DNA of 57,672 nt, the filler included, from Circinaria calcarea (lineage: Eukaryota): the NCBI GenBank assembly GCA_051942165.1. It is 4 parts of 4 records of this genome, joined end to end, with 100 filler letters (N's around TTAATTAATTAA, not from the genome) between each part and the next. Parts side by side here need not be neighbours in the genome. Positions count along the whole stretch, not along the records: positions 28,900 to 43,236 come from JAVECS010000440.1; 3 more parts are not named here. One strand, given 5' to 3'. Of this stretch, positions 28,900 through 43,236 are shown piece after piece. Both the position numbers and the translations under genes were made by a program. Position 1 is the stretch's first letter. Every line of letters begins with the position of its first letter. The notes beneath the pieces were generated by a model. It worked only from the letters and a program-made list of their open reading frames with translations, made no database searches and was not told the origin of the DNA.

Positions 28900-28953
28900 G
28901 ATTATTCAAACGCAGCTATCCCCAGCTTCATTTGCACCGATAAACTCGGCGGC

Positions 28954-29948
28954 ATGAATTCCATAGATCCTACAGCGGCGATATTGCTTGGAGATCCCTA
29001 CGACTTCGAAAGGGAGAACAAAGATGACAATTCATACTCCATTACTGACAGTCAAACGACATTTGATACCCAGCTTCAACAGTTGCATTTCGATACAATT
29101 AGGCAAGCTCCAACAACCTGCGATAGAGCGCCCAATGGAATGGCTAGTAACGTCAAGAAAGCCCTTGCTATAGCGCAGTCACCATTGCCCACTGTCAGTT
29201 TGCCTGTCAATCCTGGCGATTTATGCTCGCGGCAATCTAGAGTGCACGTTGGGTCGTCGACAGAAGCACCAGACCCATTTTGGCCTCATTCCTCGGTTAA
29301 CCTTGACACTCTTTCTATAAGCTCTCGAGAAGCTTTGTTGCAAGCTTGGCCGCAAAATCAGCAATATGGTCGTCCGCAGGACTCTCCCCGAGTTTCGCTT
29401 GATTCGCAAGACAACGGCACGGCAGAGAAACCAGGACCATCTGACACGGCAGAGGTTGCTGGGAAAGCAAGCGTACGAGAGAGATCACGTTGCAATTCCC
29501 ATCGTTCTGACCAGGATCATTTTCTTGTTAGGTCCAAACTTTCCGGTATGTCCTACAAGGAAATCAAAGCCCAGGGTCATTTCAAAGAAGCCGAGTCGAC
29601 ACTCCGGGGTAGATTTAGGACTCTAACGAAAAGTAGGGAGCGTCGGCTCAGGAAGCCACACTGGCACGACAGAGATGTGAGCTTCGGTGCAAAAGCTCCC
29701 AATCTAGTATTATACGATTTACTGACTGGGTACAGATCGAGATGCTCCGGAGGGCAGTCGCCGAGTATAGTGGGAGAGGAAAGGATGTTACATCACTGAC
29801 TCCTCCGGTTAGTCAGAAGGACGGATTGGAGGGGCCGAAGATTCCATGGAAACACGTCGCCGAATACGTAGCCCGGCATGGTACCTATCATTTCGGAAAT
29901 GCAACTTGTCGTAAAAAGTGGAACGAGATTTGCGGGTCGGATCCTTGA
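28954..29948 (+). CDS. Fungal Myb/HTH-like domain protein (5' end possibly before the contig start)
   Basis: FLVRSKLSGMSYKEIK..EAESTLRGRFRTLTK..RKPHW, an intron about 29677-29734, then MLRRAV..KIPWKHVAEYV..YHFGNATCRKKW. Confidence 0.75.
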
Positions 29949-31100
29949 GGAAAAGCATCTGCTTCAAGCTTGAACTTTGGGAGGCGTAGCAATACTATCT
30001 GCATTGGCTCGCACGTTGTACTACTTTTATATCAAGCTACCGTATCATGTGCAGATTGTCCTTGGCTTAGCATTCCCAACTCATATCTGCTTGGATGTAA
30101 TTCGTTTGATGAGAGGATTTCCTCTTATTGATTCACCCGGAAGGCTTGAGAAAATCAACAACTCAAGCGAAGCTGATAAAGAAAGGACATCGTCGCATAG
30201 GGGTGGGTGAGCACGAGAAGAATTGAAAGAACATCTCGTTCTTATTGCCCGTGAGTGCAGTCTCTATGGCACGTTGTAAGGTTTCTCGACCCCCAAACGC
30301 TTAACATTAAACTAATGAGACGTGCAACAGTTCTAGTGGCTGAGTAGAAGTCGCCGCCGAGGGTGATATTATGATAGTTAAGGGGCTCCCATGTACGAGT
30401 TGTATCTCGTCAATTGTTGTCAAACCTTGAGTGTTCAGAACTTCGCTGCAACAGACTTGACCTGTAGCGTAGCATGTACAGGGTAAACCACATACACTGA
30501 TTGTCTTTTGTCGGCAACAACTTATGCACCCCGCCTCGGTTAAGACTTTCAATGTATTAATGAGCTGATATCTGTTGCCATAAGATCTATTGTACTGGTG
30601 GCATGCGTACAGCACCTTCACTGCTATAATAGTCAGACGCGAAACCGCAACAGACTCTCAAATTCTCCTCTCTAATGAGAAGATCTCAGATCTGCCGTAT
30701 CTACGTCTTAGGGTAAGAGTTTAGGATTGTGAACTATCTCGTCCTATATTTCCACATATACAAGGCTCCTCTCCGATATTTATTAATAGAAATTGCAGGC
30801 TTTCAGGGGATTTATATTCCTTAATGTTCTCGTTTGGTCCCATTAATCGACTGACTTTCAAATACGCGACCATCAATGATTATGCTATTTATTCCATCTG
30901 GATTCTAAAATTATTTGTTTCTTAAGCGAGATTCCTTGATATTAATAGCATATCGGACACGAATCGGTCGTTACGCCCGAGATGCCCGCCATAGTCTGAT
31001 CTTGTGGATGACGCAAGCCGAGAAGGACCGCTGATATGCACAGAGACACCCCGACCAACATTGTGTCCGGGTTTGAGTAAAAATCGAGGCCAACTATTCT

Positions 31101-31980
31101 ATGGCGTTGCCGAGCCTGGTAACACCAGCGCTGCTGACATTAATCCGCGGACAACCGCAACTCCCAGCGCACTCGTGGTATTTCATTGCCGGTGTGACAC
31201 TATCTGTCTTGAATCGGCCGGATGAAATAGCGAAGGTCTTCAAGCATGCAATCGAGGGAGGACCCGGCTCGCTGGAGAAGAAACCGGAACCCGAAGAGCA
31301 GTTACAGATTGCGCGCAGGATGCGCGAAGCACTGGTGAAAGCGGCTCCTATAGGGGGGCTACCTAAGGTATATCTGCTCTCGCTCTTCCTACACTCGAGG
31401 CACTCCTTTGCATATTTACGAACGTAAAATTCAGGCAATCAATGCCCTGTTCGCATTGAAAGACGCTACGCCCCAATCATTACTTGATGAACCGCTGGGT
31501 TATTCTCCCACCGCTAGACCGGTCGAAGTCTATGACACTCCCTCTTCTACAATCTTGCATCGCGGTCAGACCTTTTTTGACAAAATATACGGGAAAGTGT
31601 CCAAACGAGTAATGGGGCAGATGGACCGGTCGGGCACCGAGGATTTAGGCCTTACAGCCAGACTAATGTACGGCTATATTTTGAGCAACACGAGTGTGTT
31701 GACGGCCGCGGAGAGTAGTTATGTGCTGCTGGCAGGTCTCATACCCCAAGATGTGAGCTACGGAGACGAGAGGTTGTGTTGAAAACTGCTGATGCCCCTT
31801 AAGGTCAACCCACAATTGAAGGGTCACCTGAAGGGAGCAGTGAACAACGGTGCTACCGTCGAAGAGGTCAAGGCAGTCCGAGAAGTAATACTTCGAATAT
31901 GTGAAGCTTCGGGGATGACAAGAATCGAAGGTACGGGGCTTGGTGGATGGGGTTGGAGGGGGAGGGTTGCTAATCTATAG
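31101..31980 (+). CDS. AhpD/carboxymuconolactone decarboxylase-like protein (Pxp2-like)
   Basis: Three exons: RMREALVKAAPIGGLPK|AINALFALK..RGQTFFDKIYGKV..LIPQD|VNPQLKGHLKGAVNNGATVEEV; ends ANL*. Confidence 0.85.
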
Positions 31981-34900
31981 TTGCGCTGTATGATCTTACT
32001 GTTGAGGCTTCCCATTACTTCCCGACGCCTTCGACGCCCCGTTAGACCGCTCGAGTAGCGCGTGTCTGTGGTTGACAGTCGGTTATATATAATATCTGGC
32101 AACGTAGTGCGGAACAAACCAGCTCTTTGTTCAAGTGCCTAAGCTGGATACAACAAAGTTATGTGGGAAAAAGATGGACTTAGCATAAACATGATCCATC
32201 TCAATTTCAGAATTATCAAGTATCACACTAGATCCTACACTTTCTCCCTATTTGGGTGGGCCCGAGGTATTGTAAGAATTTTGCGATTGGTAAGAGAAAC
32301 TGACGTTGTAATGCTCTGATGAAGGCCCAAAAAAAAGGGTATCGACATGTATTCCTCGCCTCCTTCTCGCCTCTGGCCTAAGATCATGTAAGCAAGTCTA
32401 CGCCCCTGGAATCCTCTGGGGCGAAATTGACCAAAAAGTATGTGAATACGGAGAGATGGTTATGTCGACAAGCCGCAGTCACTCTGAGTCAATGCTCGAC
32501 ATGAAAGAAATTAGCCTCTGGTGCATGACGCACCAAGAAGAGATTGTATCGGCAACCGCCATCTTGGCCGATTCTGCAGTCATTCAGTCATTTCTGTCTG
32601 TGGCTCACTAGGCGTGGCCGTACTTCCATGGTCCTGTTAATGCGTCTCAAACTCCGGACGAGTGTCCTGGTTAAGCAGAAGTCATTGTTGAGAGTGACAG
32701 CATTGACATTCGGTGGACCCCCTCCTGCAAAGAGCTGCATTCCCTTATGTGTCACGAGCATTTAGGCGTACCAAAGTTGAGATATATCTCAAATATCCAA
32801 TCACTACTCGGTAGACAGTGAGACCCTTGATACGATCATTGTTCGCCAGCGATAATGACTTTTGCACACCGGCCCCGTATGAGTGCGCCTGTAAAATAGG
32901 CCTACCGTGAGGTTGTGCAGCCAAACACAGTCGGAGAATTTGCCGAATGCAGCATACTGCGCTTGGTACCCTAAGCCTTAGACTAAGCCCTTTGAAATTG
33001 CATCATGCATGGCTGCCTCCCTAGCGCCAATCTTGTTCACCGACACAAATTTCCCACCGCCTCACCCACACTGCAAGTATTTGCACGATTATTGCATCTT
33101 CAAACGCGGTGAGAGAGGCTGCCATGGCCATTCTTTCAAACCTTCCCATACTAGATCCATTTATACGGCGGGTTCAGATGAATCAAGATTCTGGCCTTGA
33201 CCGTCTGATACTATTCCGACCTAAGCCTCACCTCCGAAGAAGACGGCTTCGACGCAATCGGGTGAGTCTCCCTATCGCAATGGAAGTTGCCGATCTGCCA
33301 TGTGGTCGCTGTTTGATCATCGAGGCACACGGGGTCTACGAGCATGCGATGCCTCTGCTGGATTGGTGAAACGAGAGGATGCTTGTGCCACATGTTGGTT
33401 CGTCATCAGTGCCATACCCGAACGTAATAATCTGACCCCGGCCCTACACAGAACACACACCTTATCCAACGTTGCTTCCAAGGAATTGTGCGTTTTGAAG
33501 CTCGGTTTCTACACTCAGAGTAGACATAGGTGATGGGTACGGAGTACGAAACACCGTGATATCTCAATCGTCTCCCATCACCAACGATTAATGCACCGAC
33601 CTCGGTAGCGCGTGCCACTCTACTAAACCTGCCCTGTGTGGGATAGCCTTATGGCGAGACCAAGGAGACACGGCCCATAGCTCAAACGGATATACTCAAC
33701 GGCGGCTGTCCTGCGCGAAATTATGGTTTCCACGTGTAGGATCGTCTCACCCGTACCGACACCGTGGTTCATTGCATCGAGTCTGACAGGGACAAGTGAA
33801 CACGGAACGAAAGGATCGCAGCCATGTGCTTTGAAATTCCACGGGGACTTCCCTGACTCGGCCCGCTCACTGGCTGCCAAGCTGCTCGCCTATCACCATG
33901 TGCACATCCTCATTACTCGAAATGAAGCGGATTCGCCATAACGTCTTGTACGCCGACGGAGTACGGACGGAGTATGAAACCAAGTCCACTCTCGTATTGC
34001 CTGCATCATTCCCTGAACCTAAACATCATGCAGACTGTGAGCTACCTGCCTTTGACTGGTACTTGTAGGCCAAGGTTCTGGACAGCAACCAATGCTTTCC
34101 GGGACAGACTTGCCTGTCCCAGAGTTGTATATCAGTGTACGCCTGCATATTGCGCGTAGATGGGCCTCTGGCGACACGCTATAATTATCGTCATTATGGA
34201 GCATGGGATGCTGACCACTCCTGCTTGGGTCGATGAATGGAACAAAGAAACGATCACAGAGGTCCCCACAATCGGGCTTCAGTCACACTGCTGTCTGGAG
34301 TGTTTAAAATCGTCGTAGGTTATCATCACCCTCGACGGCGGTGTGTCTGCACTCATGGCGACAAGGGCCCGTGAGATTTAAATTGGTGGGAATGTGGGAT
34401 AACGGAGCCAGGGTCTCCACGAATAGCAGCACAGGCTTTCACTGCCTCCCCGGAGCCGGCTGTTATTAAAATCTCACCGACTGCGTTTGGCGAACCACTG
34501 AGGGCGCGGGTCGCATGCACCCTTTTGGCGCTCAGCCTTGCCGGAGTTCTGATTCGATCCTGAGCACGTCGAATACGGTGTACCAGGGTGGAAAGCTGCC
34601 CGGACGGGCCTAGTCAGGCTTGAAGTGAGCACCCATTCAGGCGGGTGGCAGGGATCTCTGACAGCACAAGGCATTTCCATTCACCGCCGCCCTCTTGCTA
34701 GGCTCCCGCTCAATTCTTGGACTCTTCCCCGCCAAAAGTGCACTGCTGTCTGCGACGGCAAGACACGACAGCGGTCTTGAAAAGGCGGTCCTCGGCTTGC
34801 TCGGCCAATTCGAGCATCGGGTCCTGCATGTCCCATAAGGCAAGATGCACCTCCCAGGATGCCATGTTACCGACTGGTGCCCTCCAAGCTTCCTGTACCA

Positions 34901-35489
34901 CTGGCTCCAGACTGCGCATGTGCTTCATCATCGACTGCCAAACTGTTGATATTCTTATAGCTGGCCGCCAGCCCTGGATTCCAGTCTCCATCATCACCCC
35001 CACTACCAGCACCAGCAGCAGCAACTTCAACCCCGAATCTCTCCTTACTACTTTGCAAGTGATGCTTGACTCCTCCGGTATTTGACATCCCTACCACACT
35101 CTCATTATTAAACATCGGATCCTTTGACCTGAGGTGCCGCTGTCGATCGCTGTGCGCAGGCTCTGCTTGAAACATTCGATCGTCAGCTGTCTTGTTATCA
35201 CCAAAGTCTCTTCTGCTCGCACGACCCCGGTTTCATGGTCTTGGACAGTCTACTCCCTCCTATTCCACAGCAACTTGCCTAATCCCGCCGCACCGTATCA
35301 GCTCCTCGGTTCAGCCGCAGAGGTATGCTTGTGGTCCTTGTCTCCTGTCAGAATCTCTCGAGTGTTCCCATGCGAGACCTCTCGATTGTAGATCCCAGTC
35401 TTACTAATCGAACCGCAAGTACAGTTTTCCTGTGCCCGCATCCGGCCACTACTTTGCTGGCCCAGTGGGCAGACTCGTAGAAATAGGGT

Positions 35490-37839
35490 ATGGCGGTGGT
35501 CCAACCTGCGCTTAGCGACTTCGTCCTCTTTCCCCAAGAGCAGTCCTTCTTCGACATGTCAGACGAACGTGCCGACGAGACATTTGCCAACTTTCCTTTT
35601 AATATGGATCAAGACATTCACCAAGGCTTTTTGGATCTGACCGGCACTACTTTTGCTTCCTACCCAGCTAATGCTGCCTATTCGTCGCTCCCAGGCCCGT
35701 TTTACGACACTCCACATCTTGTTGTCGAAGGCCCCAAAGACTCTTCTAGGCAGCTTCAGCATCCGAGCTACACACCTTCTGCATCGCCATCAACTTCAAT
35801 GTCGCATTCCCTGGACCAGCCTCCGTCGACCCTCTCGTCTGCCTCTTGTGCGTCAATCCAAAGCACAGCCTCTTCAGCGGTTGGCTCGCCATACTCCCAC
35901 GCCACGCACAGCCTTCCTGGGCCAGATCAATGCATGGACCAAAACCATGGATTAGGTATCGCACCGGGCATCCTCCAAAGCGAAGGCTATCGTCATGACA
36001 CATATCCAATGCCGGCAATGGGGAACGATCAGGTAATCTTTGATCAGGACAAATTCACGGGAAGCTTTGTTGGTGAGTTGCGAGACGTTTCTTCCACGTT
36101 CATCTCTCCGAGTCCTACCATGAATTCTCCTATTTCTTCTTCTTCAGAATCTCAATCTTTCGTATCAAATACATTATCTTCTCCCTCCTTGGCCCACGAG
36201 ACCTCTGTGGGAGTACGCCATATTACTATCGATACTATTCTTGAAGAGGTCAATGGGAGCGTCGGATGCCCTGGGAGTTTGATATCCCCTGAATCCGCCA
36301 TATCTTCCGTGAACGCTTCGCCAAAAGCATATCACCAATCTCTCACGTCCAGATCTCCAGGCAAAGATCCGCGAAGTTTCAGATCCCCTTCGAATCCTGC
36401 CTCTGCCATGTCTCTGTCTGGCCAGGCTGCGGCATCAACGTTTGGTATGCGGCGACCAGACTCGCGTACAGGGACAACGGGGACTGTTGACCGTCCAACG
36501 GATCAGAGCCACCCTTCCGTCAACAGTAGGCCATACTCGTATGCTCGACCAACAGCACACAACCCGAATATTCTACCCCAGGCTCCAGGGGTTCAGTTTC
36601 GATCCAACTTCTTTAAACAAAGCAGCGGTAGATTTGTTGCTCCACTTGAATCATCTTGTTGGTTTTCCTTGAACTTCCATTCCTTTCTAGTTTCAGTTCC
36701 TTATCAAGTAGCTCATTCTACATCTACATGTCTGGTTTATCGAAATCGTACAGAATCATGCTGACATCAGCGGCGCCATCATAGACCCTTCCCTGATTCA
36801 GCCCACTTTTGATACACCTGTTACATACAATACAACGGCAGCACCGTACCCTGGCATGATTCATGTCTTCCACCCACCTTCACACATGTTTCATCCGCCT
36901 TCCCCAGCTCCATCAGATGAATCCAGCCAGGACTCTCACCGAACGGGCTCCAGTCGGTTCAGAAATCGCCATTCATCTCCTTATTTGCGATCTGCTACAT
37001 ATCACCCATATCCTCCGACCTCGGAAAGGCGCCGCTTGTCGATGAGCTCGGTCCATTCAAGATACTCCCAGGACAGTCCGCGATCTGTCAGTGTTGGGTA
37101 CGAGGAAGAGGGTAAAGAAAGAGGTCGCTGCCCGAACCCTGATTGCAACAAACTCTTCAAGGATCTTAGAGCCCACATGCTTACACATCAATCCGAGAGG
37201 CCAGAAAAATGCCCCATCGTGACCTGTGAGTACCATCAAAAGGGCTTCGCCCGAAAATACGATAAACAGCGCCATACTTTGACGCACTACAAGGGCACCA
37301 TGGTCTGCGGATTCTGTCCAGGCTCGGGATCAGCAGCAGAGAAAAGTTTTAACCGCGCCGATGTGTTCAAGCGGCACCTTACTTCTGTCCATGGGGTCGA
37401 GCAATCGCAGCAAAATAGCCGAAAAAAGAGCCCTTCCTCGACCTCAGCAAAGAAAAACACTAGTTACCCAAGCAACTCTACAGGAAAATGTTCCACTTGC
37501 TCGGCAACCTTCAGTAACGCCCAGGAGTTCTACGAGCATCTGGACGAGTGTGTTTTACGGGTTGTACAGCAGGAAGAGCCGAGTGAGGCTATCAACGAAC
37601 GTCGCCTTGCCGAAGTGGCGAGTGATCAAGCAGTTCAGGAGACCTTAGGTCGCCATATGCTTCCAACCGGGCTCGACCACAATTTACAATCGGAGACAAG
37701 TTTCGAGGAAGACGAGGAAGACGAGGAAGAAGATGAGGCTCAAGAAATCATCGACGATGAAGGATTAATAGAATATGGCAACATGAATCATCGGTCGGGC
37801 AACAGCGTGGTCAAATCCAGTAAGCGAGATTCCAGTTGA
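35490..37839 (+). CDS. C2H2 zinc-finger transcription factor (isoform ending at the first stop)
   Basis: Ser-rich N-terminal exon, intron to the acceptor at 36784, then fingers CPNPDC..HMLTH, CPIVTC..HTLTH, CGFC..HLTSVH and CSTC..HLDEC. Confidence 0.92.
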
Positions 37840-38256
37840 CAATTAGCACATTCCCGGGGTGTCAATCTGCACGCCGGGAATGGCAACTCAATAACAAAAC
37901 ATTGCCGCAATGGCTCTGGGGCGCGGGGCCTTACCCGTTCCAAGGGGGGTGTGCCGCTCCTGGCCGGCAAGGGTCGGAAGAAGAGAAAGCACTACCCCGC
38001 CTCCTGGGGTTGCCCTATGGAGAAGATGAAGATGAAGAAGCGGGTGTTGTGCGTCTATGACGGTCAAAGGCGCCTATGGAAGGACGAGATGATGCTCGAC
38101 AACGAGTTTGAAGTGCGGTTGCGCCTGGGTGAGGGTAATTCTTACGTTACAGATCTGGATGTGATGACGGTGAACCGGGCCGAGGCTTTCCACCATGCTA
38201 CGGAAGCAGAGAAGGGACCTTGGGTTCCAGATGACATTGAAAATCGCTTGGTCTGA
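37840..38256 (+). CDS. In-frame C-terminal extension of the C2H2 TF beyond TGA (138 aa)
   Basis: Same frame as 36856-37839 with no stop until 38254-38256. Protein-like sequence GRKKRKHYPASWGC..MKKRVLCVYDGQRRLWKDEMMLDNEFEVRL..YVTDLDV..EKGPW. Confidence 0.8.
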   Translation, partial: QLAHSRGVNLHAGNGNSITKHCRNGSGARGLTRSKGGVPLLAGKGRKKRKHYPASWGCPMEKMKMKKRVLCVYDGQRRLWKDEMMLDNEFEVRLRLGEGNSYVTDLDVMTVNRAEAFHHATEAEKGPWVPDDIENRLV

Positions 38257-39140
38257 GTGCCCGTGGGGACATAGGGGTTGCGCGTTTTACTGCTAGGTGC
38301 TCGCTTCCCGCTGCCAGCGTGTTCTAGCGATGCCCGGGCTAGGATGGCGCTCCCACTCATTATGAACTTACGGCTGTCACCCAGGAATTTTGGGAGGATC
38401 GGCTACGCCATGAGCATGATGTGTGGTGACTTGCACCTCTTTTGCAATAGTTGTGTAATGTATTGTGTTTATTAGGCTCCGAGAGTGTTGGTGCTGGTCA
38501 CTAGAATTAGAAAAAAAGTCGTCGGCCCTTTCGATGTGGATTCATTCGGAGGCGGTACGCTTCCCAAAATTTGGGTATCCACTATAACCATTTTTTTTTT
38601 AAATATCACCGCTCCCACGATATGAATCCCTTAACGGCACGGTTGTTGTCGGATTCGATGAAACAGACTCATCAGTCCCTGTGCCTGGCGGTTTGGGCGG
38701 CGACTAGGAGAAGCAACCACCAATTAGGCCGCGGCTCTCAACGTCAACATTACAGCACGAGAGTGGATCTTCATACTATGTGCCTGCAGTCCCATATCAC
38801 TAGCCCCCCACGTGGAATGATAAAAAAACGTGATACATAAACTCGGGTGGCCGTCGGGCCTAAAGTTTGTGATGACCCTCTAGATACAGGGACGCAGTAG
38901 CCTAACTATTACGTGATTAATTAGAGGCCATGGAGTATGTGTGTCGCGTACTCCGTATTTTTGGTCACCCCGCGTGCCCCCCGCAGTAAAAGCTGAGGGT
39001 AAATCATAACGAGTCGGGACTCGGGAAAGACCTCGGCAGTTATGACGTACTCCGTAAGACAGGATGCCATCCTGGCACCAAACAGTCAGGCCTACCTTTC
39101 GGAGTAATACCACGAAACAACCTTGGGTCCTGTCCTGATC

Positions 39141-41306
39141 ATGGCGGAACCCAAGGACGATAGCATCTCTCCTTATGACGCCGGAGCTTACGACCCTTCC
39201 AGAATTCCCAACTTCGACACGCAATACATCAGCCAGGCCGACATTGATGAGTTTGCCAAGGCCTTGAGTGCCCCGGAATCCTCGCCCGTCACGGCGCTGA
39301 ACGACTGGCGGCCCGTACACCAACGCGTACGGCGGAAGCCCTCCAGTCGGAAGGGCGGCAAGAAGAAGCCCGCGAAGAGAAGCAAAGACGAAACGAGGGA
39401 AGGATTTGTATATACCATCGTGAAGTGGCCCCTCCTGCTCGTCGTGTTTGGCTGGTTGCTTGTCCTTGGCGTCTCTTATCTGGCCACAAGGTTATACATC
39501 TACGCCTATGAGCACTTGATCATTTGGAGGGGAAAGCGGGAGAGACTCCGGCAAAATGCGCGGTTGGCAACAAACTATGTGGACTGGATGAAAGCGGCAA
39601 AGGAGCTGGACATCTACCTGGAGAACGAGAGGTGGAAGCAAACGGATGACTACGCCTACTATGATTATAAGACGGTCAGAAAAGTAAAAGACCAGCTGAA
39701 GAGCCGTCGGGAACAGGCCAGCAGTACGGCGAATGGCTCGACTGATGTAGAAGCTTCGCAAGATGCTATCCAGGATTTGAAGGGTTTAGTGGAAGCCTGC
39801 GTGAAAAATAATTTTGTTGGGGTGGAGAATCCTAGAATCTACAGTGAAACCTATTACGGTACCAAATACCTTGCTCAAGATTTCATTGACGAACTTTACA
39901 CCTCGCTCAACTTCCTCCTCCAGTCGCCCCAGCTAAGCAACGATCAGAAGTACTCGCTCTGCAAGCACCTCCATACCAATTTCGGGCGTACGGCACTTTG
40001 TCTTTCCGGCGGAGCATGCTTCTCTTTCTATCACTTTGGTGTCGTCAAAGCTCTTCTAGACGCATGCCTCCTACCGGACGTTATCACAGGCACATCAGGC
40101 GGAGCCGTTGTGGCCGCCCTCGCTGCCACTCATACAAACGAGGAACTCAAAAGACTACTGGTCCCAGCTCTGGCTCACCATATAAGGGTCTGCGCTGACT
40201 CATTCCATGTTTGGATCCGACGCTGGTATCGCACTGGCGCACGGTTCGACTCCCTCAACATGGCCCTCGAATCCAGTTGGTTTTGCCGTGGTAGCACAAC
40301 CTTTTTGGAAGCCTATGAACGCACAGGACGGATTCTCAACGTCAGCTGCGTTCCCTCGGATCCACATTCGCCCACAATCCTGGCAAACTACCTTACCGCA
40401 CCAAACTGTGTAATCTGGTCGGCGGTACTTGCCTCAGCGGCTGTTCCTGGAATTTTAAATCCTGTTGTGCTGATGTCCAAAAACCGAGATGGTTCCCTGT
40501 CTCCGTACTCTTTTGGCTCCAAGTGGAAAGATGGCAGTCTGAGGACAGACATACCTCTTAAAGCTCTCAACTTACATTTTAACGTTAACTTTAGCATTGT
40601 CAGTCAAGTGAACCCGCACATCAATCTTTTCTTTTTCGCCTCCCGAGGTACAGTCGGCCGTCCTGTAACGCATCGCAAGGGCCGCGGCTGGCGTGGTGGT
40701 TTCCTGGGCTCAGCAACTGAACAGTACCTTAAACTCGATCTGAACAAATGGCTCAAAGTACTACGCCACTTGGAACTCCTTCCGAGACCGCTGGGCCAAG
40801 ACTGGTCGGAGATTTGGCTGCAAAGGTTCAGTGGTACTGTCACAATCTGGCCGAAGAGCAAATTCAGCGATTTCTGGTACATCCTGTCCGATCCGACACC
40901 TGAAAGACTGGCGCGAATGCTGCAAGTTGGCCAGCAGAGTACCTTTCCGAAACTGCTGTTCATTGCCAACCGGATTAAGATTGAAAGGTTGGTGGAGCAG
41001 GGACTTCTACTAGGGAGGCGAGGCTCGGCAACGGGCAATGGAGGGGATGCTGATAGTATGCATGTACAAGGGCAGGCGATGAGGGGTTTGGTGGAAGAAG
41101 AGGATACGGATGAAGAGGATGAGAGGCTGATATGGAGCGATGCTGATGGCGATACACATGACAGCCGGAGAAGGTTATCCGTGATGGAAGAGCTAAAGAG
41201 GCAGAGTGGTGTTTTCTTCGATGACCTAGCCGGGGAAGGGGACGGGACGGATGGCAGCGAGGAAGATACGAAAGCAGTAGACGATGGACCAACCGAAGTT
41301 GGGTAG
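39141..41306 (+). CDS. Patatin-like phospholipase / triacylglycerol lipase (Tgl3/4/5 family)
   Basis: Intronless. TM near the N-terminus, oxyanion GRTALCLSGGA, nucleophile GTSGG, ASAAVPG and catalytic WKDGS. Confidence 0.93.
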   Translation: MAEPKDDSISPYDAGAYDPSRIPNFDTQYISQADIDEFAKALSAPESSPVTALNDWRPVHQRVRRKPSSRKGGKKKPAKRSKDETREGFVYTIVKWPLLLVVFGWLLVLGVSYLATRLYIYAYEHLIIWRGKRERLRQNARLATNYVDWMKAAKELDIYLENERWKQTDDYAYYDYKTVRKVKDQLKSRREQASSTANGSTDVEASQDAIQDLKGLVEACVKNNFVGVENPRIYSETYYGTKYLAQDFIDELYTSLNFLLQSPQLSNDQKYSLCKHLHTNFGRTALCLSGGACFSFYHFGVVKALLDACLLPDVITGTSGGAVVAALAATHTNEELKRLLVPALAHHIRVCADSFHVWIRRWYRTGARFDSLNMALESSWFCRGSTTFLEAYERTGRILNVSCVPSDPHSPTILANYLTAPNCVIWSAVLASAAVPGILNPVVLMSKNRDGSLSPYSFGSKWKDGSLRTDIPLKALNLHFNVNFSIVSQVNPHINLFFFASRGTVGRPVTHRKGRGWRGGFLGSATEQYLKLDLNKWLKVLRHLELLPRPLGQDWSEIWLQRFSGTVTIWPKSKFSDFWYILSDPTPERLARMLQVGQQSTFPKLLFIANRIKIERLVEQGLLLGRRGSATGNGGDADSMHVQGQAMRGLVEEEDTDEEDERLIWSDADGDTHDSRRRLSVMEELKRQSGVFFDDLAGEGDGTDGSEEDTKAVDDGPTEVG

Positions 41307-42415
41307 TAGGCTTTGATATTTGGGGTGATGGTAGCAATGGAACAGCGAAGTGAGGTATGTTGATGAGTTGATGTAAAATATGGCTTAAGCAAAGATCGCT
41401 CGTAGCTCGGGGGGTTTCCTCGAAGCTAAATGACTGTGCTCCGTGTCCGAGGCCTATCGTATCCGTGTCGGACGTCAAAGACATCATCTATACCTGATGA
41501 ACATCGGCGAGCTTTACTGACAGACATGCAGTTCCTTCATGAAGCTAACCGTTGAGAGAAGCCTAAATTTCGAACTGGGAAATTCCCTTTGGTTGGAGTT
41601 AGCGACAGGCTTCGTGTAGTCTATCCATTTCAACGCCGGGCCCATCAGGACCCGGAGACAGGACGGGGAAATGGTTGCTGAGATTACGTGCACCTACTCT
41701 ATACTATCCCAGACCTTTCCCACGGAGATACTAAATCATCATACAGTTTACGACCGTGGCGGGTTTCCCATTGCCTCGTTCGGACAGTTGAGCTCTATAA
41801 GAAGCACCGGACACTGCATGCATATTATAGGCGATCTCGTACTGGACCTAGGGATGAGCCACACCGTTGAATTGCTTTGGTAATATTGGTCACGTGTGCG
41901 AAAGACCCTATTTAAGCGAGCCCTTCTATTCACGCCTAGAGTAGACGAATTTCCCAGGGTAGGATCTCCGGCGGTAATGGTAAACTCATCATCGGCCGCC
42001 AGGCAAGAGTGGACGATCAGCCTAAATTGTGCTCCAGTTCGTCGGGATGACGCCCGCTGGAGATAATTTAAGTGTTTCGAGGAAGGGGGACCTCATTGTA
42101 GTTACGTAAACTTCCCTGCGGCTTGATTGTAACCCATTCAGGCGTGGATAAACTCTAGGAGTGCCTGAGAGTAAAGCATTATAGAAGACGTAAAGGAGGA
42201 TTTGCTGTACTGAAATACATCTAGTCCAAATGTTGCCCGATAGAAGCCTTCGATAATGAGATTGAGTACACCACAAGGAGACTCTTTATGCCCTTTCCGT
42301 TTCACCCATCAGATAGGTGGCATCTTACCGGCTCATCAAACCATTCATCAGGAACGCTGACCGCAAGGACCCCCAAAATAACTCCAACAACACCACCGGA
42401 TAGGTCGACAAAACA

Positions 42416-43204
42416 TCATAGCATATCCACGCCTGAATCCCCCCCAGTCCCGCATCCCGCCTTGCCCCCGCTCTTCAATAAACAACTCCTCTTGAAGTAG
42501 GTATTTGGATGAACAATGGTATCCAATTCTGTCGCTCCCCAACTGCCTTCCTCCTTTACTTTTCGAATTTCCCCCCTGTGCACCCACTCAAACACGCGAT
42601 TGCATGCGATATGAAACCGCTTCTTGTCCACATCCTCTTTGACTCCTTTCAAGACATCGCGATCGTGCACCCCTGTAGCTTGGAGAAGGGTGGTAAGGTT
42701 CTCGATGTTAAAATGCCGGTATGGACAACCGTGGCTTTGACCGCTGCCGGGCTGGCTTTCGGTCAAAATCTTCTGGCATGAATAGGGGGAATACCCGCGT
42801 CCTCGACGGGTAGCATCCCCACCAACGTCGCCGTAAGCGTAGCGGATGTTGTAGCGATATTCTTTGTTGAAGGTGTCGTCGGTGATAAGACGGAAGGAAT
42901 GGCGCCAAAAGATAAGGCAATCGTCCAGGGTGAGGCCAATACCTTTGAGGAACAATGTGTATTGCAAACGGCCATGATACTTGAGGTGGCTGTTTTTACG
43001 TAGAGTGCTATGGAGGTTGCGCATGCAGAGGGGGAAATGCTGGGATAGGCTATCAACGGAAGCGGCGTTGATAGATATGCCAGGAAGAGAGGTATCGGAG
43101 TCGGAAAGGGTGGAATCGGGCGTGGAGAAGTTCTTGGAAAGATGGTTGAGGATAGGCATCAAGCGGTCGCCTTCATCGAGGCTGGGGAAGGCGCGGGCTG
43201 TTAG
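42416..43204 (-). CDS. PRI2: DNA primase large subunit, last exon (5' part cut by contig end)
   Basis: HFPLCMRNLH..HLKYHGRLQYTLFLKGIG..YSCQKI..HGCPY..FHIACNRVF..HPNTYF, including the Fe-S cluster cysteines. Acceptor at 43205. Confidence 0.95.
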   Translation of the reverse strand, partial: LTARAFPSLDEGDRLMPILNHLSKNFSTPDSTLSDSDTSLPGISINAASVDSLSQHFPLCMRNLHSTLRKNSHLKYHGRLQYTLFLKGIGLTLDDCLIFWRHSFRLITDDTFNKEYRYNIRYAYGDVGGDATRRGRGYSPYSCQKILTESQPGSGQSHGCPYRHFNIENLTTLLQATGVHDRDVLKGVKEDVDKKRFHIACNRVFEWVHRGEIRKVKEEGSWGATELDTIVHPNTYFKRSCLLKSGGKAGCGTGGDSGVDML

Positions 43205-43236
43205 CTAGTTGGTTATGTTAGCATTGGTTTCAATGA

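Follow-up and report, generated by a model that had tools for sequence, protein, structure and literature searches.

A probable leaky UGA codon, followed by a conserved CAA-YYA motif and hairpin, in a C2H2 zinc-finger gene of Circinaria calcarea

In a zinc-finger gene of Circinaria calcarea, one that lichen-forming fungi share with related groups, the frame that carries the fingers ends at a TGA codon and then continues, open and in register, for another 138 codons. The question raised by this locus is whether, and by what route, that second stretch is joined to the first. The gene lies in the window, meaning the whole stretch of DNA that was analysed (57,672 nucleotides of assembly GCA_051942165.1), in the part from 28,900 to 43,236 (JAVECS010000440.1). 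An earlier note on this DNA had described the stop, the CAATTA that follows it and the open frame beyond, and had predicted that the stop is programmed to leak. All three are present in the window as described (TGA 37837-37839, CAATTA 37840-37845, ORF 37840..38256 in the same frame until the TGA at 38254-38256), and comparison with relatives supports the prediction: programmed readthrough of the UGA, from which a transcription factor would arise in a short and a long form, is the probable explanation. The features are as follows.

35490..36657, plus strand: exon 1 of the zinc-finger gene, from the ATG at 35490; N-terminal region, poorly conserved
36658..36784, plus strand: predicted phase 1 intron (GTTGGT ... 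CTGAC branch ... AG), read from the sequence
36785..37836, plus strand: exon 2 up to the proposed leaky stop, with C2H2 fingers at about 37123-37392 and 37483-37551 and an acidic linker
37837..37839, plus strand: proposed leaky stop, in-frame TGA; the homologous codon is TGA in 41 of 80 related loci
37840..37845, plus strand: CAATTA, a CAR-YYA hexanucleotide, directly 3' of the stop
37840..37866, plus strand: block of ~27 nt with nucleotide-level conservation, CAA YYA RCA CAT YCC CRR GGT GTC ...
37849..37882, plus strand: predicted RNA hairpin, 9+4 base pairs with a 6-nt loop in the window, starting 9 nt past the stop
37840..38253, plus strand: putative readthrough extension of 138 codons, a linker with a basic patch and then a conserved domain
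38254..38256, plus strand: second stop, TGA followed by G, the predicted end of the long isoform

The product is predicted to be a C2H2 zinc-finger protein and is a proposed transcription factor. Its fingers sit in the ORF at 36712..37839, upstream of the TGA, and match zf-C2H2 (PF00096) at E 1.5e-4 and 22.5 bits, under the curated cut-off of 25.2; across 15 orthologs the finger region is almost invariant and its Cys/His pattern is invariant. Exon 1 was placed on the ORF at 35487..36764 and on an N-terminus that can be aligned to annotated orthologs, its end being set by the reading frame and the donor GTTGGT at 36658. The intron proposed at 36658..36784 has a homologous junction ('..PLESSY|P[ST]LIQ') that is spliced in the cDNA-like contigs L050 and L058 and in ortholog models.

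Taken by itself the TGACAAYYA 9-mer is within chance: the window has four copies where 2.03 are expected, and a count of four is reached in 14 of 100 shuffles. Chance is exceeded by the strongly homologous open frame of 138 codons and by the stop and context kept in relatives. The comparison set comprised 80 related metagenome loci, many of them near-identical copies from one assembly set, which amount to about 19 lineages by our tree grouping; the stop-bearing sequences, window included, number 32 distinct ones. In 41 of the 80 loci, which come from two fungal classes, the matched region contains exactly one in-frame stop, always TGA and always at the homologous codon, and TAG is never found among the distinct sequences (TGA in 32/32). 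The next codon is CAA in 32/32 and the one after it YYA in 32/32 (TCA 16, TTA 10, CTA 5, CCA 1), the YYA being kept though the encoded residue differs (S/L/P). The earlier expectation of a conserved in-frame stop with CARYYA in relatives is thus borne out, as TGA-CAA-YYA at the same codon, and four more database ORFs end at the stop column (P0268, at 96% identity, P0281, P0303 and P0314).

The extension corresponds to the conserved C-terminus of this C2H2 protein family, with 479 relatives at E<=1e-3; the 120 matches listed of these 479 all carry the precomputed Pfam assignment PF28332.1, at 58-82% identity to the extension. Searched against a local copy of Pfam, the extension gave only TOC159_MAD, at E 0.13 and under the cut-off. 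In relatives the extension runs to 129-157 codons and ends in TGA, TAA or TAG. The earlier note had proposed that a real extension should have dN/dS<1, and the downstream same-frame ORF does bear a protein-coding signature: its pN/pS of about 0.15 equals that of the finger region while synonymous sites are near saturation (pS 0.73-0.78), which indicates purifying selection. The GRKKRK basic patch is where it had been reported, at extension residues 45-50 (37972-37989). The description of the extension as folded holds in part. In an AlphaFold2 model, residues ~55-130 (~38002-38229) form a block with pLDDT 60-86, predicted to be a small beta+alpha domain, and residues 1-50 are predicted to be disordered, the mean pLDDT of the whole model being 64.9. 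A Foldseek comparison of this model with the PDB gave no match at E<=0.001 (best E 1.9), and a look-alike search of the ESM Atlas with the extension gave no usable match. Because some relatives' extensions end in TGA, UGA is an ordinary terminator in these mRNAs. A changed genetic code, with UGA as a sense codon, was rejected because TGA is what terminates the extension, both in the window and in many relatives.

Directly past the stop, conservation reaches the level of the nucleotide. Third-position conservation is at least 0.97 in six of the first seven codons, a value reached in 2 of 76 control columns with an invariant amino acid (mean 0.60), and pS is 0.17-0.33 in this block against 0.71-0.80 elsewhere. 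These ~27 nt supply the 5' arm of a 13-bp hairpin. The consensus structure of 13 pairs (RNAalifold, 21 sequences) has 97.4% of its cells paired, against 41-59% when slid along the alignment. Compensatory changes occur at three pairs among these related sequences, with 11 cells altered on both sides; 0 of 500 shuffles reach 11, which is a control rather than a probability. In the window the 70-nt fold has an energy of -28.1 kcal/mol (z -5.9), and the hairpin is the minimum-energy fold in six of seven relatives folded singly, the exception being L003. A covariance model of the stop and hairpin (R1) matches the window at 37834-37886 with 72.8 bits; it recovers 41/41 TGA loci at 63-81 bits and 0/39 loci that have no stop, and a plus-strand search of 392 kb gave no match beyond the window and the 41 TGA loci. 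The 3' arm encodes H-V/A-G-G-G, which some lineages without the stop keep as peptide, so its conservation may be partly at the protein level. Extra helix pairs below the hairpin in the window fold (RC with GY) were left out, being without covariation on our reading. An Rfam search of 37700-38000 found no match, its two chance-level rows falling far under the gathering scores. The conserved hairpin is absent from the earlier note, and it strengthens the case made there.

The element has decayed where the stop was lost. At L045 and L051 the stop is replaced by GGT, and both the hexamer and the hairpin arms are gone; at L015, L020 and L021 a 27-nt deletion takes out the stop and the 5' arm. As regards a selenoprotein, with UGA read as Sec, the sense replacements at the stop codon are G, W or S and never C, and Sec is not known from Ascomycota. 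The stop is also missing from Eurotiomycetes-like and Leotiomycetes-like clades, and in every lineage without it the extension is fused to the upstream ORF. As some lineages have replaced or deleted the stop and two clades are without it, a constitutive long form is viable.

The earlier note had looked for an unspliced, unedited TGA in RNA, and this is what the relatives have: the codon is kept in spliced, cDNA-like contigs. L079 is 99.8-100% identical to the genomic L075, is without two GT-AG introns and retains TGA-CAACTA, while L050, L058, L042 and L048 are without introns relative to L052 and retain the TGA; it is in these two comparisons, both among relatives, that the stop is seen in mature mRNA. 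L049, L068 and L073 have long unbroken upstream ORFs. A search of sequencing runs found no reads of the window's own organism (shares of only 0.05-0.13). The contigs that four runs' RNA libraries yielded belong to a relative, 90-99% identical to the window, and are colinear over the site with no joints.

Under programmed readthrough, most ribosomes would stop at 37837-37839 and release a short form, consisting of the fingers and acidic linker, with neither the GRKKRK patch nor the conserved C-terminal domain. Some would decode the UGA with a near-cognate tRNA and continue for 138 codons in frame to give the long form. Readthrough would be favoured by two cis elements, namely the CAA-YYA hexanucleotide directly past the stop, of the tobamovirus type (CARYYA), and the 13-bp hairpin beginning 9 nt past it. 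Ribosomal readthrough itself, like any difference in location or activity between the isoforms, is our inference.

A long form could also come from edited transcripts, if A-to-I editing changed UGA to UGG (Trp), perhaps in one life stage. The relative P0003 has W at the site, equivalent to a hard-wired edited state, a hairpin is close by, and some filamentous ascomycetes commonly show stop-loss editing (PMC13123824). However, the same source describes fungal editing as favouring UAG, the edited A being placed in a hairpin loop (PMC13123824), whereas here the stop is TGA in 32/32 and never TAG, its A follows a G, and it stands 9 nt upstream of the stem rather than in a loop. Editing would also leave the strict CAA-YYA without a reason. 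At the third base of the stop, A is found in all eight cDNA-like contigs, although these are consensus contigs, which could mask partial or stage-specific editing. We regard editing as unlikely.

Termination might instead be complete, with the extension made apart by reinitiation, internal initiation or a transcript of its own, and some gene callers do give a short independent ORF here (P0121, P0122). The conserved residues, however, begin upstream of any conserved AUG. None is found between the stop and the conserved GLT.SKGGV...GRKKRK.YP.SWG stretch, which makes internal initiation unlikely, and in the window the extension has no ATG until codon 60. The extension moreover never departs from the frame of the upstream ORF, all stop-less lineages have the two fused, and the CAR-YYA motif and hairpin fit readthrough. 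We know of no reinitiation signal of that composition. Separate production of the extension is thus very improbable.

Deposited gene models assume a third route, in which the stop is spliced out within a very short or unconventional intron: those of Alternaria infectoria (P0042) and Pleopsidium flavum (P0030) omit 25 and 31 residues at the site. The window itself offers GTAAGC at 37820 and TAG at 37844-37846, a 27-nt span in frame, and L015, L020 and L021 lack 27 nt at that place. Twenty-seven nucleotides is below the normal length of fungal introns. Against splicing, cDNA-like contigs from which two real introns are gone retain the whole region, the RNA-library contigs of the window's relative contain no joint, and the residues that flank the stop are homologous, in frame, to contiguous sense-codon ORFs of relatives. 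Neither a GT nor an AG is conserved around the stop, and on this ground and that of the spliced contigs both the 27-nt intron (37820 to 37846) and a branch-point reading of TTGAC/ACTAAC were rejected. We hold a short intron here to be highly improbable, and the deposited models mask the stop with short introns that are false.

A recent nonsense mutation, an assembly error or a dying gene whose open frame is a leftover might be entertained because the 9-mer alone is unexceptional and the run search gave no own-organism reads over the site, but with the same TGA in 41 related loci of two fungal classes, and with no further stop in 129-157 codons and pN/pS at 0.15 even though synonymous sites are near saturation, its probability is close to nil.

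Readthrough as proposed here can be compared with several known systems. The type I signal, a stop directly followed by CAR-YYA, is that of tobamoviruses, benyviruses and pomoviruses (Skuzeski et al. 1991, cited in PMC3542737); it is the arrangement found in the window and in 32/32 sequences, CAA-UUA and CAA-CUA being the variants of TMV and Providence virus (PMC3542737). CARYYA is effective with UGA too (PMC3542737), and in S. cerevisiae it induces readthrough (PMC3609751). In nature, type I cases mostly have UAG, one benyvirus example being UAG-CAA-UUA with a compact stem-loop (PMC3542737), whereas the present signal has UGA throughout, belongs to a cellular fungal gene and adds a conserved hairpin. 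Structures from ~8 nt past the stop are common stimulators of readthrough, and type II viral signals consist of UGA-CGG or UGA-CUA with an extended stem-loop ~8 nt downstream (PMC3542737); the C. calcarea element resembles these in having UGA and a 3' stem-loop, from 9 nt past the stop, but differs in that CAA (32/32) takes the place of CGG or CUA and the hairpin is compact, at 13 bp.

Among cellular fungal genes, UGA-CUA readthrough appends cryptic PTS1 peroxisome signals and likewise yields two isoforms (PMC4207609). The 138 codons here would instead give a zinc-finger protein a conserved domain and a basic patch, through a signal that includes a hairpin. Extensions of the PTS1 kind are short tails that target metabolic enzymes, and their context is short. 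C-terminally extended readthrough variants are also described for animal transcription factors, a Drosophila POU/Oct factor (PMC8417969) and the human vitamin D receptor (PMC5868278), although these cases differ from the fungal gene in kingdom, gene family and signal. The stop-loss editing of Sordariomycetes is another way in which fungi extend a protein C-terminally beyond an in-frame stop, there with UAG in a hairpin loop and short disordered tails (PMC13123824); here the UGA lies 5' of the stem, and what would be added is long and conserved.

A literature search, with most subscription journals outside its coverage, found no earlier description of readthrough in this gene. Outside animals, few cellular genes are known to have deeply conserved readthrough, and the known fungal cases, as far as that search reached, add short targeting tails. 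In this gene a whole conserved domain and a basic patch would be placed under a leaky stop in a DNA-binding protein, by a classic viral hexanucleotide and a hairpin retained across two fungal classes. The element would be a natural, compact (~50 nt) readthrough cassette from a eukaryote, open to direct testing in reporters. For this family the deposited protein sequences are wrong around the stop site, and since gene predictors hide such stops behind false introns, further cases may be buried in fungal annotations.

It is possible, and we put it forward tentatively, that TGA-CAAYYA-hairpin is an ancient translational switch, predating the split between Lecanoromycetes and Dothideomycetes, which sets the ratio of two regulator forms with different behaviour. 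If so, the short form would bind DNA and might be mislocalised or act as an antagonist, while the long form would be complete, and the ratio of the two could respond to anything that alters termination efficiency. The bipartite signal could then be used to find fungal readthrough genes that have been annotated away as introns.

The C2H2 zinc-finger gene of the window reads ...AGT TGA CAA TTA GCA... at the proposed leaky stop, a TGA at 37837-37839, and the same frame behind it is open for 138 codons to a second TGA at 38254-38256, just as an earlier note had described it. The fingers lie within an ORF (36712..37839) that ends at this stop and matches Pfam zf-C2H2 weakly (E 1.5e-4, 22.5 bits; cut-off 25.2). 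The window sequence and ortholog alignments point to a two-exon gene, its upstream exon being drawn from the ORF 35487..36764, with the following features:

35490 (ATG) to 36657, plus strand: predicted exon 1
36658 (GTTGGT) to 36784 (AG), plus strand: predicted intron, with a CTGAC branch
36785, plus strand: predicted start of exon 2
37849-37882, plus strand: predicted RNA hairpin starting 9 nt after the stop (RNAalifold, 21 sequences)

The next large ORF downstream (39108-41306, plus strand, 732 aa stop to stop) has a GTSGG motif and may encode a patatin-like phospholipase. By itself the motif TGACAAYYA is not unusual, with four occurrences in the window where 2.03 are expected, and the case must rest on comparison with relatives.

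A first comparison aligned 23 of 120 listed protein matches, all from metagenome or run assemblies and without a deposited gene model, to the window translation with X at the stop. Those similar enough to have the local sequence in common show a sense codon in that column, namely G (P0001, P0012), W (P0003) or S (P0009), each possibly one base change from TGA (GGN, TGG, TCA; the DNA was seen only for the metagenome loci L045/L051), and the first impression of a nonsense mutation private to the window was dropped once the stop was found in relatives. A second protein search, with exon 2 plus the extension, returned proteins that end exactly one column before X and are without PF28332: P0268 (96% identical, 327 aa) and P0281, P0303 and P0314 (∼67-69% identical). 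At the DNA level, 366 pattern matches on metagenome contigs included 328 encoding a relative; when the best 80 of these were translated in the matched frame, 41 loci showed a single in-frame stop, always in the homologous codon, and 39 showed none. Counting identical sequences once and including the window, 32 of 65 distinct sequences carry the stop, which is TGA followed directly by CAA in every one (32/32). The next codon is TCA (16), TTA (10), CTA (5) or CCA (1), so that YYA is kept while the residue varies among Ser, Leu and Pro, which means that selection acts on the nucleotides; an in-frame TGA with the CARYYA context is thus conserved among the stop-bearing relatives.

Sequence 5' of the stop is variable, and the ∼27 nt 3' of it are nearly fixed (CAA YYA RCA CAT YCC CRR GGT GTC). 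Third codon positions are conserved at 0.97 or above in six of the first seven codons after the stop, compared with a mean of 0.60 across 76 control columns elsewhere in the alignment (invariant amino acid, degenerate codon), of which only two reach 0.96; likewise pS, 0.71-0.80 in other parts of the gene, falls to 0.17-0.33 over codons +1 to +17. RNAalifold, applied to 21 of the 32 distinct stop-bearing sequences (one per near-identical group), gives a hairpin with 9+4 predicted base pairs, the conserved block forming its 5' arm. In its alignment 97.4% of cells pair, vs 41-59% with partners slid by 1-3 columns, and two-sided changes occur in three pairs and 11 cells (C-G to U-A; G-C to A-U twice). 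None of 500 shuffles reached 11 such cells or the observed covariation score, a test inflated by the kinship of the sequences, and two measures counting pairs or pair types were not above the 500 shuffles. Folded alone, the 70 nt of the window give the same hairpin (-28.1 kcal/mol, z -5.9), and it is the minimum-energy structure in six of seven relatives folded singly, the exception being L003. A 5-bp stem around the stop codon itself (GUUGA...UCAAC-like, 37831-37845 in the window) appears in some single-sequence folds (window, L001, L003, L070) and is absent from the RNAalifold consensus. A covariance model that covers the stop, the spacer and the hairpin in 53 positions, built from the same 21 sequences, matches the stop site of the window and all 41 TGA loci at 63-81 bits, half of these matches being training rows or near-copies of them, and does not match any of the 39 stop-free loci; its only other matches in the 392 kb of the window and 80 loci are weak ones on the reverse strand that echo this hairpin. 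A search of Rfam found nothing at the site.

A quick maximum-likelihood tree, built from 103 rows (the 65 distinct sequences and 38 database proteins, P0003 being left out because the anchor motif was not found in it), places the stop-bearing loci in two groups. One, with the Lecanoromycetes (Pleopsidium, Xylographa, Lambiella, Letrouitia, Wetmoreana, Polycauliona), holds the window beside P0001, and the other lies with the Dothideomycetes (Lophium, Corynespora, Neocucurbitaria, Alternaria); clades with Chaetothyriales/Verrucariales and Leotiomycetes sequences lack both the stop and the ∼27-nt block. The stop state changes at least five times on this tree, which is unrooted and does not distinguish gain from loss, and the presence of the same module in the two classes favours a single origin followed by losses. 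In L045/L051 the stop codon is GGT, and YYA and the hairpin arms are gone; in L015/L020/L021 a 27-nt deletion has taken the stop together with its preceding codon and the 5' arm, leaving a 3' arm that has drifted. In these loci the element is lost wherever the stop is lost.

The extension does code for protein. Against 5.8 billion proteins, longer proteins only, its 138 residues gave 479 matches at E<=1e-3 out of 656 candidates, and each of the 120 listed among the 479, at 58-82% identity, has PF28332.1 as its precomputed Pfam family. When cluster representatives were scanned with full HMMER, 204 proteins scored E<=1e-3, 29 of them E<=1e-30. Among annotated orthologs (Lecanoromycetes, Dothideomycetes, Eurotiomycetes, Leotiomycetes, Xylona) the extension makes up the C-terminal end of the zinc-finger protein itself. 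The suggestion that it looks folded holds for residues ∼55-130, modelled by AlphaFold2 (26-row alignment) as five strands and helices (block pLDDT 60-86), and fails for residues 1-50, which are modelled as disordered and include the basic GKGRKKRK, a putative nuclear localisation signal; the whole model has a mean pLDDT of 64.9 and no match in the PDB by Foldseek. Beyond the hairpin, pN is 0.11 and pS 0.73-0.78 inside each stop-bearing group (10 Lecanoromycetes-like and 10 Dothideomycetes-like sequences), a pN/pS of 0.15 comparable to 0.14-0.21 near the fingers, and median dN/dS, where computable, is ∼0.06. These values are well below 1 and show that protein-level constraint has lasted, with the TGA in place, for long enough that synonymous sites are saturated.

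Some of the loci are short contigs that resemble transcripts, and they indicate that the stop is part of the mature mRNA in relatives. The 2853-nt L079 matches genomic contig L075 at 99.8-100% identity except for two stretches that it lacks, bounded in L075 by GTAAGC...TAG and GTAAGT...CAG; it is colinear across the stop and reads TGA CAA CTA, so the TGA is kept unspliced in a contig from which two introns are removed. The same two gaps separate L050, L058, L042 and L048 from genomic L052 (∼87-94% identity), with unbroken ORFs up to the TGA of 689 codons in L050 and 665 in L058 (spliced junction ..PLESSY|PTLI..), and L049, L068 and L073, judged from the contigs alone, have ORFs of 519-541 codons upstream of it. 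In an RNA library of the window's nearest relative one contig spans 37411-38266 gaplessly and another 37716-38450, without joints, which speaks to colinearity only.

The first intron absent from L079 (L075:989-1096) lies ∼630 nt 5' of the coding intron, in the transcript 5' region. The coding intron of the L052 lineage has two donors (1356 to 1894 in L042/L048, 1788 to 1899 in L050/L058), and the N-terminal regions of the two forms differ in length by ∼432 nt (144 codons), a sign of alternative splicing; both N-terminal forms are likewise found among deposited models, e.g. P0095 and P0098 of Cladophialophora immunda. In L067, a presumably genomic 22.5-kb contig with an unbroken 621-codon ORF to the TGA, upstream of 2918, this intron seems either to be missing or to be in frame and stop-free.

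Gene models deposited for close relatives skip the stop. P0042 (Alternaria infectoria) is missing 25 residues that L075 has (..SRRGRSGKGGIKSSKKD-X-QLTHSRG..) and P0030 (Pleopsidium flavum) is missing 31, from exactly the X of L001; these and P0017, P0031, P0054, P0004 and P0006 skip 10-31 residues at or near the site. Since the spliced contig L079 keeps the region, a short intron over the stop is contradicted for the L075 lineage. The skips are most likely false short introns from gene predictors, and at this place the proteins in public databases are probably incorrect.

The type I readthrough signal is stop-CAR-YYA, works with UGA as well, and RNA structures from ∼8 nt after the stop are described as common stimulators, a benyvirus in the review's table combining UAG-CAA-UUA with a compact stem-loop (PMC3542737). 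CARYYA triggers readthrough in S. cerevisiae (PMC3609751), and no base matters more than the C at +4 (PMC5397192). The module in the window fits on every count (TGA, C at +4, CAA-YYA, hairpin at 9 nt), and this fit is a reason to regard ribosomal readthrough of the UGA at 37837-37839 as likely; with the conserved context, the hairpin and the constraint on the extension, comparison thus lends good support to the programmed readthrough that the earlier note had claimed for this gene. Editing of UGA to UGG, the main rival, would also give the long form and is disfavoured, as only TGA is used, a G precedes the A of the stop, the stop lies outside the hairpin and A is the consensus letter in cDNA-like contigs (for criteria see PMC13123824). 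Splicing out of the stop, pseudogenisation, separate initiation (no AUG is conserved between the stop and the GLT.SKGGV...GRKKRK.YP.SWG stretch in the window and distinct relatives) and a change of the genetic code all stand contradicted, the last because extensions, which end in relatives after 129-157 codons at TGA, TAA or TAG, also terminate at TGA, so that UGA serves these organisms as an ordinary stop.

Readthrough as a mechanism and the two types of signal are already known. The fungal case that surfaced is UGA-CUA in peroxisomal targeting (PMC4207609), and transcription-factor readthrough is described in animals (PMC8417969, PMC5868278). Full-text searches turned up no account of readthrough in this zinc-finger family, most subscription journals lying outside their scope, and an earlier report may exist. 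What appears new is a deeply conserved cellular member of the readthrough class with a composite signal. Termination at the UGA would yield a short protein of fingers and acidic linker, and readthrough a long one extended by a disordered basic linker and the conserved domain, and the two forms may differ in function.
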